Source: a virus. From it: a stretch of 58,669 bases of DNA. The notes beneath the pieces were generated by a model. That model did not search any database. It worked only from the letters and a program-made list of their open reading frames with translations, and was not told the DNA's origin. Shown here piece after piece: positions 1-58,669 of the stretch; position 1 is the stretch's first letter; each line of letters starts with the position of its first letter. The stretch lies in the IMG/VR virus record IMGVR_UViG_3300005613_000075, positions 1-58,669 of that record, one strand, 5' to 3'. Position numbers and translations under genes: made by a program.

Positions 1-123
1 GATGGCAAGTTCTGGGCCAAGACCTCAAAAGACCCGATGTGGGCTAGGATTATTCTACGCTCTGCTGACAGTGAGGGTGGGCTAGAGGCGGCTACTGCAA
101 AGGGGGCATGGTTGGATGAAGCA
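1..123. repeat. Terminal direct repeat, exact copy of 58547..58669 (circular-assembly overlap or terminal redundancy)
   Basis: Bases 1-123 are letter-for-letter identical to the last 123 bases; one ORF reads continuously through the junction. Confidence 0.95.
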
Positions 124-28094: not shown

Positions 28095-31052
28095 ATGAAA
28101 ATACACCATGAATTGGTAGAACATCAACTGCATGTTGCGGCCCATGCTGTAGCTGACAACGCGGCCCGGGTGGCTCTGGAAGCCACTTTAGTGGCGGCAG
28201 ACCGAGGCTATCTGGTACTACAACTTGACGATGGTACAGTATGGCAGTGTGTGGCGGCGGGGACCCTGGTCTTCGTGGGTAATAACCTGTCTGGCGAGGG
28301 CTACAGCGTAGATAGCTCCGGTACAGTGACCATCAAACTGGGTGACGCGGCCGGGGCGGAGAGCTTCATCCTGACTGATTCTGGCGACGCCACAGTATTT
28401 GAGATAGATTCCAACGGAGTCATCACTACGTATGCCGCCATGACTTTCGGGGCGGATATTATTCTGGACGACGGCGCGGGCGACAGTCCTAACATTCGAT
28501 GGGTTGGTGGTAGCAACGATGACACCGCCTATATGTTCCTGGACGACGACGCGGTGGCAGGGGATTCGGATCTGGTCATCAAATTGGTAGATGCTGCTGG
28601 TGATTCGGTGCTCAAGGTACTCGACAGTGGAGACGCCACCATATTCAGTCTGGATTCCAACGGTAACATCGTGCTGGTAGATGGGGCCACTGTCGGGCAA
28701 GCAGCCGGGCCCTTGTTGACCTTCGATGATACGCTAAACTTCTTAGAGATCACCGGTTGTGATGTGGGGCTAGGTACAGCCACACCAACCGCGAATCTGG
28801 ACGTAGAACAAGCCATTGTCGCCACTGGAATACGGAAGGGCATTGTCTACACCGGCGCGATCAATACGAATCAAACCCTGTCTACCGAGATACCGGCGGT
28901 AACCATCACTACCGCCGGTCGGGAATGGGCCACAGGCGCACTGGCGTTACAACGGGAAGTGCTTATTACTCAGCCGACGTATACCTTCGTGGGAGCCAGC
29001 ACTATCACCGACGCGGCCACAGTAGGAATTGTTGGTGCACCCATCGAGAGCACCAATGCCACTATCACCAATACGCACGGGTTACTGATTCAGGCCGGCG
29101 CGGTGGGAGCGGCAGATGTATCATATGGCTTGACAGTCAACGCGCAGACCGGGGCGGGGGTGAATTATGCCGCGGTGTTATTGGGAGGCAACGTCGGAGT
29201 AGGTGTAACAGACCCGGACGAACTACTCGAATTGTACAAGGTTGGCACGCAACTCAAGTTGTCCGGTGGAGCAGCAGACTATGCTACCTTCGCGGTCGCG
29301 GCTGATGGAGCATTGACTATCACCACTGTCGATGTAGACGCGGCGGAAGCTGACATCATTCTGGCCCCAGATGGAGACGTGACATTATCACCGGCACTGA
29401 AGGTCACGGGAGACGTATATCTCACCTCCGGTCTACGGATTGGCGACATCACTACTGATCCCGATGATAACACCATCGAGATGGAAGAACGGTCTACTGA
29501 CCCCGGTGACCCAGCAGAGGGAAACGGTATCCTGTGGCTATCAGATGGGTCTGACATCGGTGAAGATGGGGATCTGATATGGAAGCGTACTGCTGGGGGA
29601 GTAACGAGGTCGATAATACTCGGAGGCGAACCGTTCTACGGAGTGATGTGGAACGAGAGCACCGATGCCTACGAACGCACCGGTACGTTAACCAGTATCG
29701 CGGTGGGAAGCTCGCCAGGGAATGGCCTGCTATCCTTACAGTCCATGATGCGGCGCTGTGTCATGGATGATACCGGTGTCATCAAGTACTACCTGTGCGC
29801 CACCGATAGTACCAAGAAAGAGGACTGCCTGACCGCGTCCGTGCTCGATGGCACAGACGGCCAGGTAATGGTAGAGATACCGAAGTTTTATTTGAGGTAT
29901 TCCTACGCGGCTAACTTGCACCGGTGGGACATCAGTCCCGTCCCGTTGGCTGGCTTCAGTGTGCACCCCGCGTTCTTCAAAAACGGCGCAGAGGTAGATG
30001 CTCGTTACATGAGCGCGTATGAGGGCATACTGTACGACGATTCCGAATCGGTGTACACCAGTGACTACAATCCCATCGCGGCGCATGCGGTGACGGTCGA
30101 TGTCGATGTCGGTGGTTCGGGGAAAGGCTCGATCACCGAGAACGCGGCGGGCGGAACTATTTATGCTCAGTTGCAAGCGGGCGATGTCATCGTCGTGACG
30201 GGTACAGCGGACAACAACGGGACATACATCGTCGAATCCATCACCGGGGGAGACGTTATCACCTGTACGGGGGTAATCGCTGGCGGGGACGGGGTAGAGG
30301 CTACCTGTGTCATCAGTGCCCCAGCGGTGGACACTGCTAACGACATTCTGTCCAGCGTCAGTGGTAAGAAACCCTTCAGTGGTATCACACGGGACAACTT
30401 CCGGTCTATCGCTGCTCTACGTGGTACAGGTTGGCGACAGTTTGACTTCTACCTAGCCAGTGCGATTCAGTTGTTGTATCTGACTGAGTATGCCAGCTTC
30501 TACTCACAGTCCATGATCGGCGCAGGCTTGACGGATTGGGTTGCTGCCACGTGGAACACCTATAATGCCTATCATGCTATTAACAACACCGGTCTGAGTA
30601 ACGGTGACGGTAACGCCACCGCGAACGTCTCAGGCGGTGACGGAGTGTTAGGCTCCTACATGACCTATCGCGGTATCGAGAACTGGTACGGTCACTTATG
30701 GAAGTTCGTAGACGGATTCAACATCAATAATAACGTGCCTTACGTCTGTAATACTGACACCGATTTCGCCGATGACACCGCTACCGATTACACCGACCTG
30801 GGCATTACGCTACACAATGCCAACGGCTGGCAGAACACGTTGGAGCAGATAAGCGGGGGATTCCTACCGGCTAGCGTGGGCGCGAGTTCGTCAACCAAGA
30901 TTACAGACTACTATTATCAGGATGCTGGTTGGCGGGTGGCTCTGCTTGGTGGTACTGCTCATGCTGGCGCGTACGCTGGGGGGTTCTATTGGACTTTGGC
31001 TTATTCGGCGGCTAGCCTTGATGCTAGGATCGGTGCTCGGCCCTGCTATTAA
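28095..31052 (+). CDS. Tail fiber / receptor-binding protein, DGR target (C-terminal variable region)
   Basis: 985 aa. The last ~45 aa (QDAGWRVALLGGTAHAGAYAGGFYWTLAYSAASLDARIGARPCY) match the common C-type-lectin-fold DGR VR pattern and are repeated downstream as TR. Confidence 0.8.
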   Translation: MKIHHELVEHQLHVAAHAVADNAARVALEATLVAADRGYLVLQLDDGTVWQCVAAGTLVFVGNNLSGEGYSVDSSGTVTIKLGDAAGAESFILTDSGDATVFEIDSNGVITTYAAMTFGADIILDDGAGDSPNIRWVGGSNDDTAYMFLDDDAVAGDSDLVIKLVDAAGDSVLKVLDSGDATIFSLDSNGNIVLVDGATVGQAAGPLLTFDDTLNFLEITGCDVGLGTATPTANLDVEQAIVATGIRKGIVYTGAINTNQTLSTEIPAVTITTAGREWATGALALQREVLITQPTYTFVGASTITDAATVGIVGAPIESTNATITNTHGLLIQAGAVGAADVSYGLTVNAQTGAGVNYAAVLLGGNVGVGVTDPDELLELYKVGTQLKLSGGAADYATFAVAADGALTITTVDVDAAEADIILAPDGDVTLSPALKVTGDVYLTSGLRIGDITTDPDDNTIEMEERSTDPGDPAEGNGILWLSDGSDIGEDGDLIWKRTAGGVTRSIILGGEPFYGVMWNESTDAYERTGTLTSIAVGSSPGNGLLSLQSMMRRCVMDDTGVIKYYLCATDSTKKEDCLTASVLDGTDGQVMVEIPKFYLRYSYAANLHRWDISPVPLAGFSVHPAFFKNGAEVDARYMSAYEGILYDDSESVYTSDYNPIAAHAVTVDVDVGGSGKGSITENAAGGTIYAQLQAGDVIVVTGTADNNGTYIVESITGGDVITCTGVIAGGDGVEATCVISAPAVDTANDILSSVSGKKPFSGITRDNFRSIAALRGTGWRQFDFYLASAIQLLYLTEYASFYSQSMIGAGLTDWVAATWNTYNAYHAINNTGLSNGDGNATANVSGGDGVLGSYMTYRGIENWYGHLWKFVDGFNINNNVPYVCNTDTDFADDTATDYTDLGITLHNANGWQNTLEQISGGFLPASVGASSSTKITDYYYQDAGWRVALLGGTAHAGAYAGGFYWTLAYSAASLDARIGARPCY
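30915..31047 (+). repeat. DGR variable repeat (VR)
   Basis: 133-nt alignment to 31075..31207 at a fixed 160-nt offset; 27 mismatches, 26 of them opposite TR adenines. Confidence 0.9.
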
Positions 31053-31074
31053 CATAATTGTAGTGGGTTGTCCA

Positions 31075-31207
31075 TATCAAAATACTGGTTGGCAGGTAGC
31101 TCTACTTAGTGGTAATGCTAATAATGGCGCGAACACTGAGGAGTTCTATTGGAATTTGAATAATTCGGCAGCTAACCTTAATGCTAATATCAGTGCTCAG
31201 CCCAGCT
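31075..31207 (+). repeat. DGR template repeat (TR)
   Basis: A-rich copy of VR. 11 AAY codons when read in the VR-equivalent frame. 26 of its 39 adenines are substituted in VR. Noncoding position between the fiber stop and the RT. Confidence 0.9.
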
Positions 31208-31330
31208 TATTTCAAATACGAAGGCAGTGAAAGATATGGAGAACCTTGCCTCTTGGCACAATACAAAGCAAAGCCTCATTGGTGTTGGTAGGACTGTAAA
31301 GTCTCGAAGGCTCCGAGGTGAAATAAGCAG

Positions 31331-32392
31331 ATGAAACGATATGGGAATTTGTATCCAAAGATTTGGGATATGGACAATATCAAGGAGGCGCATCGAAACG
31401 CACAGCGGGGGAAGAAGCATTATCAAGAAGTCCAGATGGTAAACGCTGACGAGGAGAACTATTTGGTACAGCTTCAAGCGATGCTACGAGATAAAACATT
31501 TCGTAATTCTGCTTACGAGGTGTTCACGAAAGTAGAAGGTGGCAAAGAACGTGAGATTTACCGATTGCCTTATTTCCCCGACAGGATAGTGCATCATTGC
31601 ATTATGCAGATATTGGAACCGATTTGGATGAAAACGTTCATCTCTGATACTTACGCTGCATTGAAAGGACGTGGTATTCACAAAGGCGTTAAACGTCTAA
31701 AGCTGGCATTGCGCGATGTAGAGAATACCAAGTATTGCCTGAAGTTTGATGTGCGCAAATTCTATCCTTCTATTGACCATGATATTTTGAAAGTAATACT
31801 TCGCAAGAAGATAAAAGGCCCTGATGTGTTATGGTTATTGGAGGAAATCATAGATTCCGCTGAGGGTGTTCCAATAGGCAATTATCTGAGTCAATATTTT
31901 GGTAATCTCTATTTGGCATATTTTGACCATTGGATGAAAGAAGAGAAGGGATGTAAATACTATTTTCGTTATTGTGACGATGTGGTTGTGTTGCATAGAG
32001 ACAAAGGTTTTTTGCACAAGTTGTTGATCGAGGCTCAGGAATATTTGGATACTCATTTGAAACTTCGTATGAAAGCTAACTATCAAATCTTTCCGGTCGA
32101 TAAGCGTGGGATTGATTTTCTAGGTTACCGATTCTTTCATAATTACACATTGCTACGCAAGAGCATCGTTCAAAGATTCAAGGCAAAAGTGGTGCGCATT
32201 AAACGTTCATATCGTGAAATGTTCTCAAGCCAAATCATAAATGGATTGATGAGTTACTGGGGATGGATGAAATATGGTAATTGTTTGAATTTGGCAAAGA
32301 GATACATTGACGGAAATATTAGACAAATTGTGGGAACGGTGTCTAAACAGAACGACATCAAAAATCCACTGAGGAGGTTCACATGGCTATAA
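31331..32392 (+). CDS. DGR-type reverse transcriptase
   Basis: RT motifs YRLPYFPDRIVHH, FDVRKFYPSIDH, IGNYLSQYFGNLYL (DGR-typical I/LGxxxSQ motif 4), YCDDVVV (YxDD), FLGY. 353 aa; conspicuously lower GC than the flanks. Confidence 0.88.
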   Translation: MKRYGNLYPKIWDMDNIKEAHRNAQRGKKHYQEVQMVNADEENYLVQLQAMLRDKTFRNSAYEVFTKVEGGKEREIYRLPYFPDRIVHHCIMQILEPIWMKTFISDTYAALKGRGIHKGVKRLKLALRDVENTKYCLKFDVRKFYPSIDHDILKVILRKKIKGPDVLWLLEEIIDSAEGVPIGNYLSQYFGNLYLAYFDHWMKEEKGCKYYFRYCDDVVVLHRDKGFLHKLLIEAQEYLDTHLKLRMKANYQIFPVDKRGIDFLGYRFFHNYTLLRKSIVQRFKAKVVRIKRSYREMFSSQIINGLMSYWGWMKYGNCLNLAKRYIDGNIRQIVGTVSKQNDIKNPLRRFTWL

Positions 32393-32715
32393 GTGACACG
32401 CGTCCGGCGGAACGTTACACATCCAACGGCAAGACAGTCTTTCCATTCAACATCGTCGAGACAGAAGTGACGGACCCTGAGACGGGCAAGAAGCGCACGC
32501 AGTACGAGTACGACGAAGCACGGGTCGAAGGCGAAGTGACGCGGGAGAAGATCGTCCGGGCGGCGATTGCGGCCCGCTACAGCATCGAGGATGAATTGGC
32601 GACGATCAATAACTACCTAGCGGACAAGGTGAAGTACGAGGCGGAGTATCAGAAGTATCAGGATTTCAGGACTACAGCCAAAACAATAGCTACAGATTTG
32701 GGGGTGAGAGCATGA
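32383..32715 (+). CDS. Hypothetical protein
   Basis: Overlaps the RT stop by 10 nt; GGAGG SD; GC returns to the genome norm; acidic, not Avd-like. Confidence 0.55.
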   Translation: MAISDTRPAERYTSNGKTVFPFNIVETEVTDPETGKKRTQYEYDEARVEGEVTREKIVRAAIAARYSIEDELATINNYLADKVKYEAEYQKYQDFRTTAKTIATDLGVRA

Positions 32716-32938: not shown

Positions 32939-33922
32939 GTGAGACGTTGGCTGGCAATTGTCCTGGCTATTGTCGTTGCTATGGCTTTGTTGCTGCTAAT
33001 AGTGTGGTATGTGCGACGACCACCGGCCTTGCCATCCTTGCCGCCTCTGGCGACTAGATTGGCCTGGCCCGCACCATTTGCCTATCTGACGCCGGAACCA
33101 AGCAGACCATACAAATACTATTTCCCAATTGTGTATGGGAGTGGAAATGTGCCATCAGCACGTCGCGTGAGGAAGTCATTGAACATGGTCGGGGGCATAA
33201 GCTGTACTGAGTTAAATAGCCTGAATACGGACTGGGTCTACAATTGGGCACCAATCCTGGGTGAACAATGTCCCGGTATTCCCCAGTTGCCTATGATTCG
33301 AGACCGGAATCAACTCGATAATTTGGGTCACAAATTAGATGATTATGAGGGTATAATCCTGACTTTCAACGAACCGGAATATCAGGTTTGCTCAGAGGGA
33401 GCTTGTATGAGTTTGGATGAGTTAATTGAGGCCTGGCACGATATGGAACTTCTATTGCCCGGTAAGACATTTACCTCGCCAGCTTTTGCCTATCCATATC
33501 CTTTTGAGTATGATTTTCACGATTTCGTATATGGGTATCGAGATAGATATGGAACCTGGCCCGATTTCAAAATCATCGCGGTGCATTTCTATGCCCCGCA
33601 TTACGAGGGCTATACCCTGTCACTAGCGCAGAATTGGTTTTACTATATGTGGAGCCGGATTGAGACTTTGCCGGACGTCTATCGCGATTGTCCGGTGTGG
33701 ATTACGGAGACCGGGGTACATTGTGAGTATGGGTTAGATCCTCTACCGCGCTTGTTTGCAGAAGCCTGGTTACGATGGGAGCTAAATTACTTAGAGGCCC
33801 AGGGGCGGTGTGAGTATGTCAACTGGTTCGGGCCTCGCATGGGGAATTATCAATTCTGTGTGCCGTTGTATGCCGATGGGAATCTAACGGAAGTGGGAGA
33901 GCTGTGGCAGAATTGGAACTGA
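32939..33922 (+). CDS. Membrane-anchored TIM-barrel glycoside-hydrolase-like protein (clan GH-A-type NEP / ITETG motifs)
   Basis: N-terminal hydrophobic anchor WLAIVLAIVVAMALLLLIVW. FNEPEYQ (acid/base-like) and WITETG (nucleophile-like) at typical spacing. Confidence 0.55.
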   Translation: MRRWLAIVLAIVVAMALLLLIVWYVRRPPALPSLPPLATRLAWPAPFAYLTPEPSRPYKYYFPIVYGSGNVPSARRVRKSLNMVGGISCTELNSLNTDWVYNWAPILGEQCPGIPQLPMIRDRNQLDNLGHKLDDYEGIILTFNEPEYQVCSEGACMSLDELIEAWHDMELLLPGKTFTSPAFAYPYPFEYDFHDFVYGYRDRYGTWPDFKIIAVHFYAPHYEGYTLSLAQNWFYYMWSRIETLPDVYRDCPVWITETGVHCEYGLDPLPRLFAEAWLRWELNYLEAQGRCEYVNWFGPRMGNYQFCVPLYADGNLTEVGELWQNWN

Positions 33923-34098: not shown

Positions 34099-34364
34099 TA
34101 ACGCGACGGGAGTTCTTGACCCTACCTTTGGCGGGCTGGTTCGGTAACGATGACTACGAGTTACAACGGTTGCGCCACGACTTCGAGGAATACTGCCGGG
34201 CAGACAGGCAGGACATGGACGCGGTGAAAAGGGTCATCGGGGAGACCATCGGGGCTATGATAGAATTGGCCCGGATCATTGACCAGAACACTGCCTATCT
34301 GGAGGCCCGGATCGAGGCGCTAGAACAGGGGCGATATCAGCAAAGAGAGAGGGAGCAGATATGA
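34095..34364 (+). CDS. Hypothetical protein with Tat-signal-like N-terminus (MITRREFLTLPLAG)
   Basis: RREFL matches the twin-arginine consensus core, but the hydrophobic region is short. Confidence 0.45.
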   Translation: MITRREFLTLPLAGWFGNDDYELQRLRHDFEEYCRADRQDMDAVKRVIGETIGAMIELARIIDQNTAYLEARIEALEQGRYQQREREQI

Positions 34365-34876
34365 TAGAACAATTAGGACTTACCATCCTGTTGGAATTGA
34401 TGCTGGAGCCATATTTGCAATGTGTCCTCGGGGCGGAAATGTATCCCGATTGGCCAGAGGTGGACTACTGGCCCCTTGAGGCATTGAAGGCCCAGGCGGT
34501 GGCAGCCCGATCGTATGCTATATGGAGAATTGAACACCCTCGAAACGAGTATTTCCATCTCTACGGTGACGCTCGCGATCAGGGCTTCGACTGCACCCGG
34601 CGACATCCGAAATCAGACCGAGCTGTGCTGGAGACTCAAGGCGAGGTCATAGTCAGCCCTGAAGCGAATTTTGTGGCCAGGTACGTGAATCGCTGTGGGC
34701 AGAAACATTGTCCGGTGTGTCATGGTGAAAACGGGTATGATAATCGAACATGGGAAGGCCGGTTGTGTCAGTTTGGGACAAAGGCATTAGCTGATCGGGG
34801 GCTGACATATGTAGAGATTCTGCAATATTACTATGGTTCGGAGATAACAGTGAGGAGGTACGATGATATATCCTAA
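34361..34876 (+). CDS. SpoIID/LytB-like peptidoglycan-remodelling domain protein
   Basis: EALKAQAVAARSYAIWRI matches the conserved SpoIID motif; 171 aa. Confidence 0.55.
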   Translation: MIEQLGLTILLELMLEPYLQCVLGAEMYPDWPEVDYWPLEALKAQAVAARSYAIWRIEHPRNEYFHLYGDARDQGFDCTRRHPKSDRAVLETQGEVIVSPEANFVARYVNRCGQKHCPVCHGENGYDNRTWEGRLCQFGTKALADRGLTYVEILQYYYGSEITVRRYDDIS

Positions 34877-58233: not shown

Positions 58234-58669
58234 GCACTTGGTTGGGCCAGATGAAGTCACACCGGTCAAGTTCCACCAGGGTCAACAGTGGGCTTGGGAC
58301 GCTGAGCAACGGTGGGTAGCGATGATAAGCGGCACTCAGTCTGGGAAAACGCAGTGGGCTCCCTGGTGGTTGAAACGTGAGATTGAGGGACGGGGCAACG
58401 GCGACTATATTGCTATTTGCCCTACTTATGACTTGTATACCTTGAAAGCTCTCCCTGCGCTGCTCAAGGTGTTTTGTGACATTTGTAACATTGGTAAGTA
58501 TTGGGGCGGAACCAGAGTTGTAGAAATTCGAGAAGATGCAAAGCCAGATGGCAAGTTCTGGGCCAAGACCTCAAAAGACCCGATGTGGGCTAGGATTATT
58601 CTACGCTCTGCTGACAGTGAGGGTGGGCTAGAGGCGGCTACTGCAAAGGGGGCATGGTTGGATGAAGCA
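58169..58669 (+). CDS. terL: Terminase large subunit, N-terminal portion (continues at position 124 via the 123-bp overlap; start uncertain: ATG 58169 or TTG 58238)
   Basis: Walker A GTQSGKT encoded at 58331-58351; the frame is continuous with 37..1047 (58583 corresponds to 37). Confidence 0.8.
   Translation, partial: MDNLRKVAKQRTTQTKTKWPTEHLVGPDEVTPVKFHQGQQWAWDAEQRWVAMISGTQSGKTQWAPWWLKREIEGRGNGDYIAICPTYDLYTLKALPALLKVFCDICNIGKYWGGTRVVEIREDAKPDGKFWAKTSKDPMWARIILRSADSEGGLEAATAKGAWLDEA
58547..58669. repeat. Terminal direct repeat, exact copy of 1..123
   Basis: Identical 123 nt. Confidence 0.95.

Follow-up and report, generated by a model that had tools for sequence, protein, structure and literature searches.

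The window (the whole 58,669-nt stretch of viral DNA analysed here) very probably carries a complete diversity-generating retroelement (DGR) laid out as target-VR-TR-RT with no accessory gene (architecture A1, RT lineage 3). The element lies at the end of the tail module and would retarget the phage's own tail fiber. It is a well-preserved representative of an Avd-less DGR lineage that has been described before, rather than a novel type of system. The phage genome itself is complete (~58.5 kb, with a 123-nt terminal overlap). The core components are as follows.

28095–31052, + strand: target gene, tail fiber/tail protein of 985 aa (open reading frame, phrog_5302, homologs, fold)
30915–31047, + strand: VR (variable repeat), covering the final 44 fiber codons (residues 941–984)
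31075–31207, + strand: TR (template repeat), non-coding, with 39 adenines and 11 AAY codons in the VR-equivalent frame
31331–32392, + strand: DGR reverse transcriptase (RT) of 353 aa (RVT_1, 8ub7, phrog_1423, motifs)
31053–32392, no strand: low-GC island of TR, spacer and RT, 39.9% GC against 52.9% in the remaining genome

VR and TR form a gapless direct repeat of 133 nt at an offset of 160 nt and are 80% identical, with VR in frame with the 985-aa reading frame. Among 27 mismatches, 26 fall opposite TR adenines, so that 26 of the 39 TR adenines are altered (18 A to G, 5 A to C and 3 A to T; hypergeometric p = 6.4e-17 for 26/27 mismatches on 39 As among 133 positions). The sole exception is TR T31188 versus VR G31028, and 93 of the 94 non-A positions of TR match VR. 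The VR–TR gap is 27 nt, and 123 nt (31208–31330) separate TR from the RT start codon. A first-pass annotation of this DNA had described the repeats, the adenine bias, the 11 AAY codons and the RT 123 nt past TR; every coordinate and count was reproduced, and the bias was upheld on re-alignment. Where a TR adenine is followed by G, it was read as G in about 90% of cases, synonymous sites included. No second VR was found within the window when both strands were scanned. The 3' ends of the repeats, where IMH and IMH* sit in DGRs of the BPP-1 type, are unlike each other (VR GCTCGGCCCTGCTAT versus TR GCTCAGCCCAGCTTAT) and are without a 14-nt G/C tract. There was no stable hairpin in 31025–31085 (z = 0.52), nor a BPP-1-type GC-rich IMH plus hairpin 3' of VR, and target recognition may therefore differ from that of the BPP-1 prototype.

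The RT matches Pfam RVT_1 at 1.4e-13 and the RT profile phrog_1423 at 8e-122. Its motif IGNYLSQ occupies residues 182–188 (nt 31874–31894) and the catalytic box YCDD residues 214–217 (nt 31970–31981); the longer IGNYLSQYFGN named at first pass was confirmed at residues 182–192. Equivalents of bRT R74 and I181 are kept. The best PDB match was 8ub7 (E 3.6e-40, over residues 2–293); group II and retron RT structures followed at E 1e-15 or worse, 25 orders behind. The 8ub7 chain (328 aa) carries the label 'Reverse transcriptase'. Its length and residue numbering, read beside the bRT cryo-EM preprint, lead us to treat it as Bordetella bRT; none of the papers searched gave the accession. Identity to the DGR RTs of crAss-like phages was 47–52%, including 46.8% (E 3e-85) to the crAssphage LMMB RT, and the nearest RTs among GenBank phages were all crAss-like. 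Sequence comparison thus supports placing the enzyme among DGR RTs, apart from those of retrons, group II introns and defence systems, in line with its original assignment to the DGR type.

These data bear on whether the 3' end of the gene was simply duplicated in tandem and then diverged neutrally beside an unrelated RT of the retron, group II intron, Abi or DRT kind. Duplication can produce direct repeats close to mobile-element RTs, and PADLOC generic RT and DRT profiles do match the enzyme. In contrast, the mismatches lie on the adenines of one copy only (p = 6e-17), and the curated NCBIfam group II, Drt and retron models all scored far below their cut-offs. No intron RNA domains or retron msr/msd were present, the RT-17 RNA described below standing there instead, and mismatches biased in this one direction are seen across dozens of loci. 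The adenine bias, the RT structure match, the failed models and this recurrence rule the duplication out, and we give it almost no credence.

Fiber residues 505–985 match phrog_5302 'tail protein' at 1.5e-88, and the last 465 aa have 1578 homologs; the C-terminal ~480 aa of the fiber are a widespread DGR-target module. An AlphaFold (AF2) model of the last 465 aa reached a pLDDT of 87.6. Against solved structures, Foldseek returned TaqVP (5vf4) as the best match (E 8.6e-8, probability 1.0), with Mtd a weaker one, whereas BFVD matches were phage tail (collar) fiber proteins at TM 0.6–0.7, including crAss-like cr55_1. In its predicted structure the module folds like the DGR variable proteins TaqVP and Mtd, which bears out the C-type-lectin-fold target first proposed from the peptide. 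The label 'tail fiber' rests on the PHROG match, the BFVD matches and the position of the gene. In a 78-homolog family, the 11 residues opposite TR AAY codons were among the most variable columns, ten of them with entropies of 3.1–3.6 bits and residue 423 with 2.4, against an upstream mean of 1.16 bits. VR ends here in ...IGARPCY, and the VRs of relatives in ...G(S/G)RLC(F); a conserved C-terminal ...SRLC marks the CLec3-class VR of lineage 3. The fiber is a singleton cluster, and the sole match in a metagenome scan was a chance 20-mer.

Related loci provided a record of transfer between the repeats. Nearly all of 80 related RT loci have the order VR-TR-RT with A-specific mismatches. One further record (L002) is the same phage, with a TR identical save for a 1-nt indel. 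The sister phage L001 is 82% identical to the window phage and repeats its GC contrast (RT 0.385 versus fiber 0.553). All 13 non-A differences between the TRs of these two phages are mirrored in each phage's own VR, and the two VRs differ at 2 of 73 shared non-A sites as against 20 of 35 shared A sites. TR-to-VR transfer therefore went on after the phages diverged, and as far as the two genomes record it, directional transfer over evolutionary time is shown. Together, the repeats, the RT, the target fold, the 80 related loci and the sister phage support the DGR reading of the locus that had been advanced at first pass.

We also considered a relic, an element whose parts can still be recognized but which has ceased to mobilize information, its TR/VR differences being left over from earlier activity. 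The one non-A mismatch (T31188/G31028) and the missing BPP-1-type hairpin past VR would fit such a state. However, the RT reading frame is unbroken and retains its catalytic YCDD as well as conserved residues of fingers and palm. The spacer RNA is also intact and conserved, as are both long-range helices described below, and transfer postdates the split from the sister phage. Identity at 93 of 94 non-A positions further argues for recent homogenization. A relic is accordingly improbable in our estimate, and a functional retroelement remains the preferred reading.

The spacer between TR and RT contains a known RNA motif and two strands that pair with the edges of TR.

31066–31078, + strand: 5' strand of the duplex that brackets TR, GGUUGUCCAUAUC (12 of 13 nt complementary; inverted repeat I14)
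31205–31214, + strand: TR 3' end/spacer junction, GCUUAUUUCA, pairing with 31319–31328
31233–31245, + strand: 3' strand of the duplex that brackets TR, GAUAUGGAGAACC, which adjoins the RT-17 hairpin directly
31242–31334, + strand: RT-17 RNA (RF03020), full-length match, 49.7 bits versus a gathering score of 40.4, E 4.7e-8
31319–31328, + strand: spacer tail, UGAAAUAAGC, complementary to 31205–31214

Of 16 related loci scanned, 7 have an RT-17 match above the gathering score at the corresponding position. The 5' strand of the bracket duplex overlaps the first 4 nt of TR, and the duplex is kept in about 35 of 38 relatives. Its mean RNAduplex energy was -14.7 kcal/mol with each locus's own partner versus -6.3 with swapped partners, and the own partner was the best of 38 in 27 loci; the bracket duplex covaries. 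We propose, by analogy, that 31066–31078 corresponds to the upstream strand of the BPP-1 'cPRT Stop'. The second duplex comprises 10 contiguous Watson–Crick pairs (-12.8 kcal/mol). Its TR-side strand begins immediately 3' of A31204, the last mutagenized adenine. The spacer tail sits between a Shine-Dalgarno-like GAGG (31315–31318) and the RT AUG at 31331, and is a conserved, unpaired tail in the RT-17 model. Compensated variants occur in loci L004, L008, L032 and L058 and in the L035 group; this duplex was not separated from swapped-partner controls, the swap statistic being uninformative for that helix. Modelling the spacer tail on the priming role described for BPP-1 (bioRxiv 10.1101/2023.10.23.563531), we propose that 31205–31214 is the template strand of a template:primer-like duplex and that the priming nucleotide lies in or just past the spacer tail (C31328/A31329). 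Both long-range duplexes together give a crossing (pseudoknot) topology, unlike BPP-1, and the second as priming duplex is therefore conjecture.

A working model can be assembled from these parts. A single transcript probably runs from the fiber gene through TR and the spacer to RT, since no terminator interrupts that stretch. The RNA from ~31066 to 31334 would fold so that 13 nt at the TR 5' edge pair with 31233–31245, bracketing the template, and the TR 3' edge pairs with the spacer tail. The 353-aa RT would bind this RT-17-type RNA, with cDNA primed at or beside the second duplex, and copy TR leftwards from about A31204 until halted at the bracket duplex; priming in cis and both the start and stop points are modelled on BPP-1. 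Non-adenine bases would be copied faithfully, adenines before A or T (AAY codons) randomized, and adenines before G, and largely those before C, read as G. The cDNA would then take the place of the homologous 133 nt at the end of the fiber gene, re-drawing up to about 11–13 residues on a C-type-lectin-fold receptor-binding tip and, if BPP-1 is a guide, altering host range.

The layout target-VR-TR-RT lies on one strand with no accessory gene in the core. Avd (PF05635) and HRDC gave no match in 81 ORFs, and neither was among the best 25 families, to E 0.067, in a permissive search (limit E 0.5) of 55 small ORFs. The absence of Avd had been missed by the first-pass annotation. It places the element in the known Avd-less lineage rather than beside the Bordetella prototype, and this absence and the BPP-1 analogy suggest that catalysis may be Avd-independent. 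Such an architecture and lineage are already in the literature (PMC5758913, PMC7290462). As judged by sequence, the element matches DGR 'lineage 3' / architecture A1 (Wu et al. 2018), which includes crAss-like phages; the crAssphage LMMB RT was assigned to lineage 3 by Morozova et al. (PMC7290462). No close relative of the phage was found among GenBank phages.

A functional DGR that needs an unrecognized accessory in Avd's place was also weighed, the DGR possibly requiring either a host factor or one small neighbouring gene.

32383–32715, + strand: acidic 110-aa ORF (pI 5.1) that overlaps the RT stop codon and matches phrog_11557 (unknown function) at 1e-8

This ORF lies directly downstream of and syntenic with RT in 21 related loci (tblastn), a different 98-aa ORF family (phrog_19665) comes after RT in 49 of 80 relatives, and small acidic 'CH1' proteins have been described in Avd-less lineage 3a by Wu et al. 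(PMC5758913). Set against this, the 110-aa ORF has the GC of the phage (~54%) rather than that of the cassette and no nucleic-acid-binding signature; no Pfam, NCBIfam or PADLOC family was found for it. The two candidate families replace one another, and many relatives lack both; they therefore fit better as phage neighbours than as core DGR parts. We thus consider such a requirement rather unlikely, though well ahead of a relic, and favour the accessory-gene-free element.

Comparison with known systems places the element closest to the DGRs of crAssphage LMMB and other crAss-like phages (PMC5758913, PMC7290462). These share the target-VR-TR-RT order without avd and a tail (collar) fiber target with a CLec-type C-terminal VR. 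Their RTs are 46.8% (LMMB) or about 50% (cr55_1, cr52_1 and others) identical to the one described here, the target module structurally resembles the cr55_1 tail fiber, and relatives' VRs end in the lineage-3 'SRLC'. In contrast, the host phage is unrelated (~58.5 kb, 53% GC), its 985-aa fiber has another N-terminal half, its VR ends in ...GARPCY instead of ...SRLC, and the VR–TR gap is just 27 nt.

The prototype BPP-1 DGR (mtd-avd-TR-brt), an Avd-dependent element of architecture B, likewise transfers TR to VR with adenine specificity, and there too VR closes the gene of a C-type-lectin-fold tail protein that binds the receptor. The RT described here is homologous to 8ub7 (taken to be bRT) and keeps IGxxxSQ along with the counterparts of R74 and I181. 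The TR-upstream:spacer duplex resembles the 'cPRT Stop' of BPP-1 and the TR-3'-end:spacer duplex its template:primer duplex (bioRxiv 10.1101/2023.10.23.563531), although the two duplexes here would cross in pseudoknot order and not lie side by side. Further differences are the lack of an Avd gene between VR and TR or elsewhere in the genome, a spacer RNA of Rfam type RT-17 and not RT-10 (PMC5737381), AAT being commoner than AAC in TR, and no GC-rich IMH plus hairpin past VR. TaqVP of Thermus aquaticus (PDB 5vf4), likewise a DGR-diversified CLec-fold protein, is the best solved match to the fiber module, but at 13% sequence identity and a TM of about 0.4–0.5; unlike the phage fiber, it is a variable protein encoded on a bacterial chromosome. 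Rfam RT-17 (RF03020; Weinberg et al. 2017) is matched at full length immediately upstream of the RT gene. Rfam and the source paper list it simply as an RT-associated motif with no role assigned, and it was RT-10 alone that was linked to a DGR (PMC5737381). Here RT-17 is placed as the TR–RT spacer of an Avd-less DGR clade, and both the 5' edge and the 3' tail of the motif pair with TR-flanking sequences outside the Rfam model.

The 3' end of the tail-fiber gene is duplicated as a gapless direct repeat at an exact offset of 160 nt (30915–31047 and 31075–31207, 80% identity), as the first-pass annotation had described. The upstream copy, the variable repeat (VR), is made up of the final 44 sense codons of the ORF at 28095–31052 (985 aa). 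A base-by-base count gave the claimed 27 mismatches, 26 at adenines of the downstream template repeat (TR; 39 adenines in total), with T31188 in the TR opposite G31028 in the VR as the sole exception. The probability of 26 of 27 mismatches falling on 39 adenines among 133 positions is 6.4e-17. Substitutions at adenines were A to G (18), A to C (5) and A to T (3). Read in the VR frame, the TR also carries the 11 AAY codons reported. A scan of both strands of the window with the TR, ignoring adenine positions, found no second or remote copy, and the element therefore has a single VR.

The 353-aa reverse transcriptase (RT) ORF placed 123 nt past the TR was confirmed at 31331–32392, with IGNYLSQYFGN at residues 182–192 and YCDD at 214–217. 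Its Pfam match was RVT_1. A search of all PDB sequences put 8ub7 (328 aa, E 3.6e-40, residues 2–293 aligned) far ahead of group II intron and retron RTs, which scored 1e-15 or worse. The 8ub7 entry is labelled only 'Reverse transcriptase'; we take it to be bRT, the RT of Bordetella phage BPP-1, on the basis of chain length, residue numbering and the cryo-EM preprint on bRT–Avd–RNA (bioRxiv 10.1101/2023.10.23.563531); none of the papers searched gave the accession. Residues R74, I181 and Q187 of bRT contact the incoming nucleotide and template (bioRxiv 10.1101/2023.10.23.563531), and their equivalents in the alignment to 8ub7 are conserved. Consistent with the diversity-generating retroelement (DGR) type assigned earlier, scores against the NCBIfam group II RT/maturase, Drt2, Drt3a, Drt5 and retron RT models all fell far under the curated cut-offs. 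PADLOC generic RT and DRT profiles matched the protein through shared RT domains only, and a defence RT was rejected. Homologs occur in 113 GenBank phage records, the nearest in crAss-like phages (47–52% identity). The crAssphage LMMB RT, assigned to DGR 'lineage 3' (PMC7290462), is 46.8% identical (E 3e-85).

The 985-aa fiber had no Pfam or NCBIfam match; residues 505–985 matched PHROG 5302 'tail protein' (1.5e-88). For its last 465 aa, 1578 homologs were found, most of them proteins of 480–600 aa. An AlphaFold2 model of this region, built from 78 homologs, had a mean pLDDT of 87.6 and a pTM of 0.89. The best-matching solved structure was the Thermus aquaticus DGR variable protein TaqVP (5vf4; E 8.6e-8, probability 1.0), with a weaker match to Mtd, the Bordetella phage target (1yu0; E 0.02). 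Searching BFVD returned annotated tail and tail-collar fiber proteins (TM 0.6–0.7), including one of crAss-like phage cr55_1, together with a Treponema TvpA-like protein and an FGE-sulfatase-like protein. In the homolog alignment, column entropy opposite the TR AAY codons was 3.1–3.6 bits at 10 of 11 residues and 2.4 bits at the eleventh, compared with 1.16 bits on average for the columns upstream of the VR. The PHROG match, the TaqVP, Mtd and tail-fiber fold matches and the high AAY-column entropy support the earlier proposal of a VR with a predicted C-type-lectin fold on a tail fiber. Upstream of the fiber gene, a 1204-aa protein had no Pfam, PHROG or NCBIfam match.

With the RT as query, IMG/VR yielded 80 loci, to which a simple TR/VR detector was applied. 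Nearly all are compact, with the TR-proximal VR 17–158 nt before the TR and the RT ~100–145 nt after it. Mismatches in these relatives are adenine-specific, and some loci hold two or three VRs. Multiple VRs are frequent in a subgroup with RTs 50–55% identical to that of the window (L035–L080); there the additional VRs sit ~600 nt upstream, in tandem target genes that are short (~158 aa), and every copy matches a single TR, again with adenine-specific mismatches.

Comparison with L001, a sister phage 82% identical over window 28695–32667, came closest to what read data would show. Non-adenine differences between the two TRs number 13, and at 13 of 13 each phage's VR carries the base of its own TR. 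The VRs differ at 2 of 73 shared non-adenine positions and at 20 of 35 shared adenine positions. This mirroring and adenine-site scatter show that information passed from TR to VR, scrambled specifically at adenines, later than the split of the two phages. Same-strain VR variants were found neither through the fiber cluster, in which the fiber is a singleton at 90%, nor by a 20-mer scan of IMG/VR; the lone metagenome 20-mer match to the VR search (L082) was attributed to chance, as it had no other similarity. One further record, IMGVR_UViG_3300005346_000863 (L002), is 99.8% identical and represents the same phage, and position 1 of its contig corresponds to window 31052, about 1 nt past the fiber stop codon. 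Two short contigs with RTs at least 90% identical (L083 and L084) start at about window 31066–31085, inside the TR, and are therefore uninformative on VR microdiversity; the start of L084 is Illumina adapter sequence. In all, three assemblies made independently from this phage or close relatives of it (L002, L083 and L084) break at the VR/TR region, which is compatible with repeat- or microdiversity-induced breakage and proves nothing alone.

The adenine-specific repeats, DGR-type RT, target fold and transfer seen against L001 bear out the original interpretation, and with high confidence the locus is a DGR. Present-day activity, the priming site and independence from Avd, the BPP-1 accessory protein, are inferences.

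The TR-to-RT spacer (31208–31330) holds a full-length match to Rfam RT-17 (31242–31334, 49.7 bits against a gathering score of 40.4), and of the 16 relatives scanned, 7 have RT-17 at the equivalent position. Weinberg et al. linked a single such motif, RT-10, to a DGR, that of BPP-1, and speculated that other RT motifs might belong to DGRs (PMC5737381). Two predicted long-range helices fall outside the Rfam RT-17 model:

31066–31078, + strand: helix 1, 5' strand, GGUUGUCCAUAUC; last 4 nt within the TR
31233–31245, + strand: helix 1, 3' strand, GAUAUGGAGAACC; adjoins the RT-17 hairpin
31205–31214, + strand: helix 2, 5' strand, GCUUAUUUCA; begins directly 3' of A31204
31319–31328, + strand: helix 2, 3' strand, UGAAAUAAGC; spacer tail

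Across 38 non-redundant relatives, helix 1 keeps a common form of 4 bp, a bulged or mismatched G, and 8–9 bp, built from many different sequences. Mean duplex energy in these relatives was −14.7 kcal/mol with the own partner and −6.3 kcal/mol with swapped partners, and the own partner was the best of 38 in 27 loci. By analogy, helix 1 would correspond to the BPP-1 'cPRT Stop' duplex, in which spacer nt 59–70 pair with the 11 nt preceding the TR and which its authors surveyed in Avd-containing DGRs only (bioRxiv 10.1101/2023.10.23.563531).

Helix 2 comprises 10 contiguous pairs (−12.8 kcal/mol), with compensated versions in L004, L008, L032, L058 and the L035 group of relatives. [quoted passage not shown] Partner swapping gave no separation (own −8.75, swapped −7.66 kcal/mol), a control made uninformative by the conservation of both strands within subfamilies. 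Helices 1 and 2 would also cross if formed together, whereas the BPP-1 topology differs. For these two reasons we rate helix 2 as a proposal, a candidate priming helix by analogy. Its spacer-tail strand sits between a Shine-Dalgarno-like GAGG (31315–31318) and the AUG (31331) of the RT gene, so that helix formation could compete with RT translation initiation. A BPP-1-type hairpin after the VR was looked for and not found, and the stretch from the fiber gene to the RT has no terminator.

Adenine misincorporation was compared by sequence context in 57 non-redundant TR/VR pairs of the clade. TR CAG became VR CGG in 31/31 cases, ACT became GCT in 25/25 and AGT became GGT in 56/59, while AAY codons gave many different VR codons. 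In the TRs of five relatives, TAG lies opposite an invariant Trp codon of the VR. Protein selection could be behind part of this codon pattern, but synonymous sites behaved alike. At four-fold degenerate sites, a TR adenine followed by G corresponded to VR G in 41/45 cases; those followed by A or T gave C (4), A (3), G (2) and T (1). When distinct sequence contexts were counted, which partly controls for phylogenetic non-independence, G was the majority VR base in 38 of 48. Within the window, adenine before G became G at 8 of 9 sites (exception A31204) and adenine before C at 4 of 5, with scattered outcomes before A or T; the first two contexts cover 12 of the 18 A-to-G changes. Codon usage as the cause of the synonymous-site excess was rejected, because G3 is only 20% at four-fold sites upstream in the same genes. 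Repair of G:T mismatches as the cause is not favoured, because the effect depends on the 3' neighbour. These data suggest that misincorporation is strongly context-dependent in this RT lineage. The AG-to-GG pattern is not mentioned by Wu et al. (PMC5758913). In a 2026 study of bRT, the 3' neighbour dominated the error profile, C misincorporation predominated, and re-use of the preceding template base was proposed (PMC12875486). The direction is the same here, but ~90% far exceeds the bRT mean of 31% (PMC12875486).

An exact 123-nt terminal overlap (window 1–123 and 58547–58669) shows that the phage genome of ~58.5 kb (ENA ERZ27256772, contig k141_2609504, 58,597 nt) is complete, and either circular or terminally redundant. 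The TR, spacer and RT (31053–32392) form an island of 39.9% GC in a 52.9% GC genome, and L001 keeps the same contrast. The RT gene is 66–70% identical in DNA to those of crAss-like phages, and RT-gene matches were all that a search for close GenBank phage relatives of the window gave. These features suggest a cassette that either came from a low-GC source or is kept at a low-GC composition. HNH endonuclease families (Pfam HNH/HNH_5; PHROG endonuclease VII/HNH) account for five ORFs of the window, unusually many for a 58-kb phage. A lysis region follows the DGR, with a Glyco_hydro_cc protein (32939–33922) and a SpoIID-domain protein (34361–34876).

The VR–TR gap is 27 nt and therefore contains no gene. 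In Pfam scans, neither 81 ORFs nor a set of 55 small ORFs screened at a permissive threshold included an Avd (PF05635), HRDC or MSL accessory gene; a weak MutS_IV match on one small ORF (E 0.012) is probably spurious. One small gene follows the RT:

32383–32715, + strand: acidic 110-aa ORF, pI 5.1; phrog_11557 (function unknown)

It overlaps the stop codon of the RT gene (ATGGCTATAA), and in 21 related loci the two genes are syntenic. In size and charge it recalls the acidic 'CH1' accessory proteins reported by Wu et al. in Avd-less lineage 3a (PMC5758913). Directly 3' of the RT in 49 of 80 relatives lies a different, ~98-aa ORF family (phrog_19665, function unknown; e.g. L008:3467–3763) with no Pfam or PDB match. 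Neither tblastn nor HMM searches found a homolog in the window, and it is also absent from the closest relatives (L001–L007). This family may represent a DGR accessory specific to the clade, or it may simply be a phage neighbour.

Thousands of DGRs have been catalogued, and one acting on a phage receptor-binding protein is expected biology. The value of this locus is as a clean, complete example in a phage without a close relative among GenBank phage records. Its ~80 relatives make two matters testable: template positioning in Avd-less DGRs, and the 3'-neighbour dependence of RT misincorporation (AG read as GG). Should the latter be as strong as it appears, DGR diversity estimates and synthetic TR design would need revising. 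A one-protein, ~1.3-kb TR–spacer–RT cassette would also be attractive for targeted mutagenesis tools.

A tentative wider reading, which we consider somewhat improbable as a whole, is that Avd-less lineage-3-type DGRs are RNA-scaffolded minimal systems in which a single ~350-aa RT and the RT-17 RNA replace the bRT–Avd complex. The RNA would clamp the template by a conserved bracket helix and a crossing helix between the TR 3' end and the spacer tail. The RT would turn template adenines before G, and mostly also before C, into G near-deterministically, leaving only those of AAY codons truly randomised. TRs could then hold 'cryptic G' adenines at scaffold positions, including in-frame TAG stops read as Trp.

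The element itself belongs to a kind already described, Avd-less DGRs of lineage-3 type acting on phage tail fibers. What goes beyond prior description is limited to the AG-to-GG rule and the pair of RNA helices, and these concern the whole clade more than this locus. Its layout matches 'Architecture A' of Wu et al., the TR–RT core without an accessory gene that accounts for 29% of DGRs, as well as their Avd-less RT 'Lineage 3' (PMC5758913). It equally matches the crAss-like phage cassette, described as 'TG-VR-TR-RT, avd absent' (PMC7290462).
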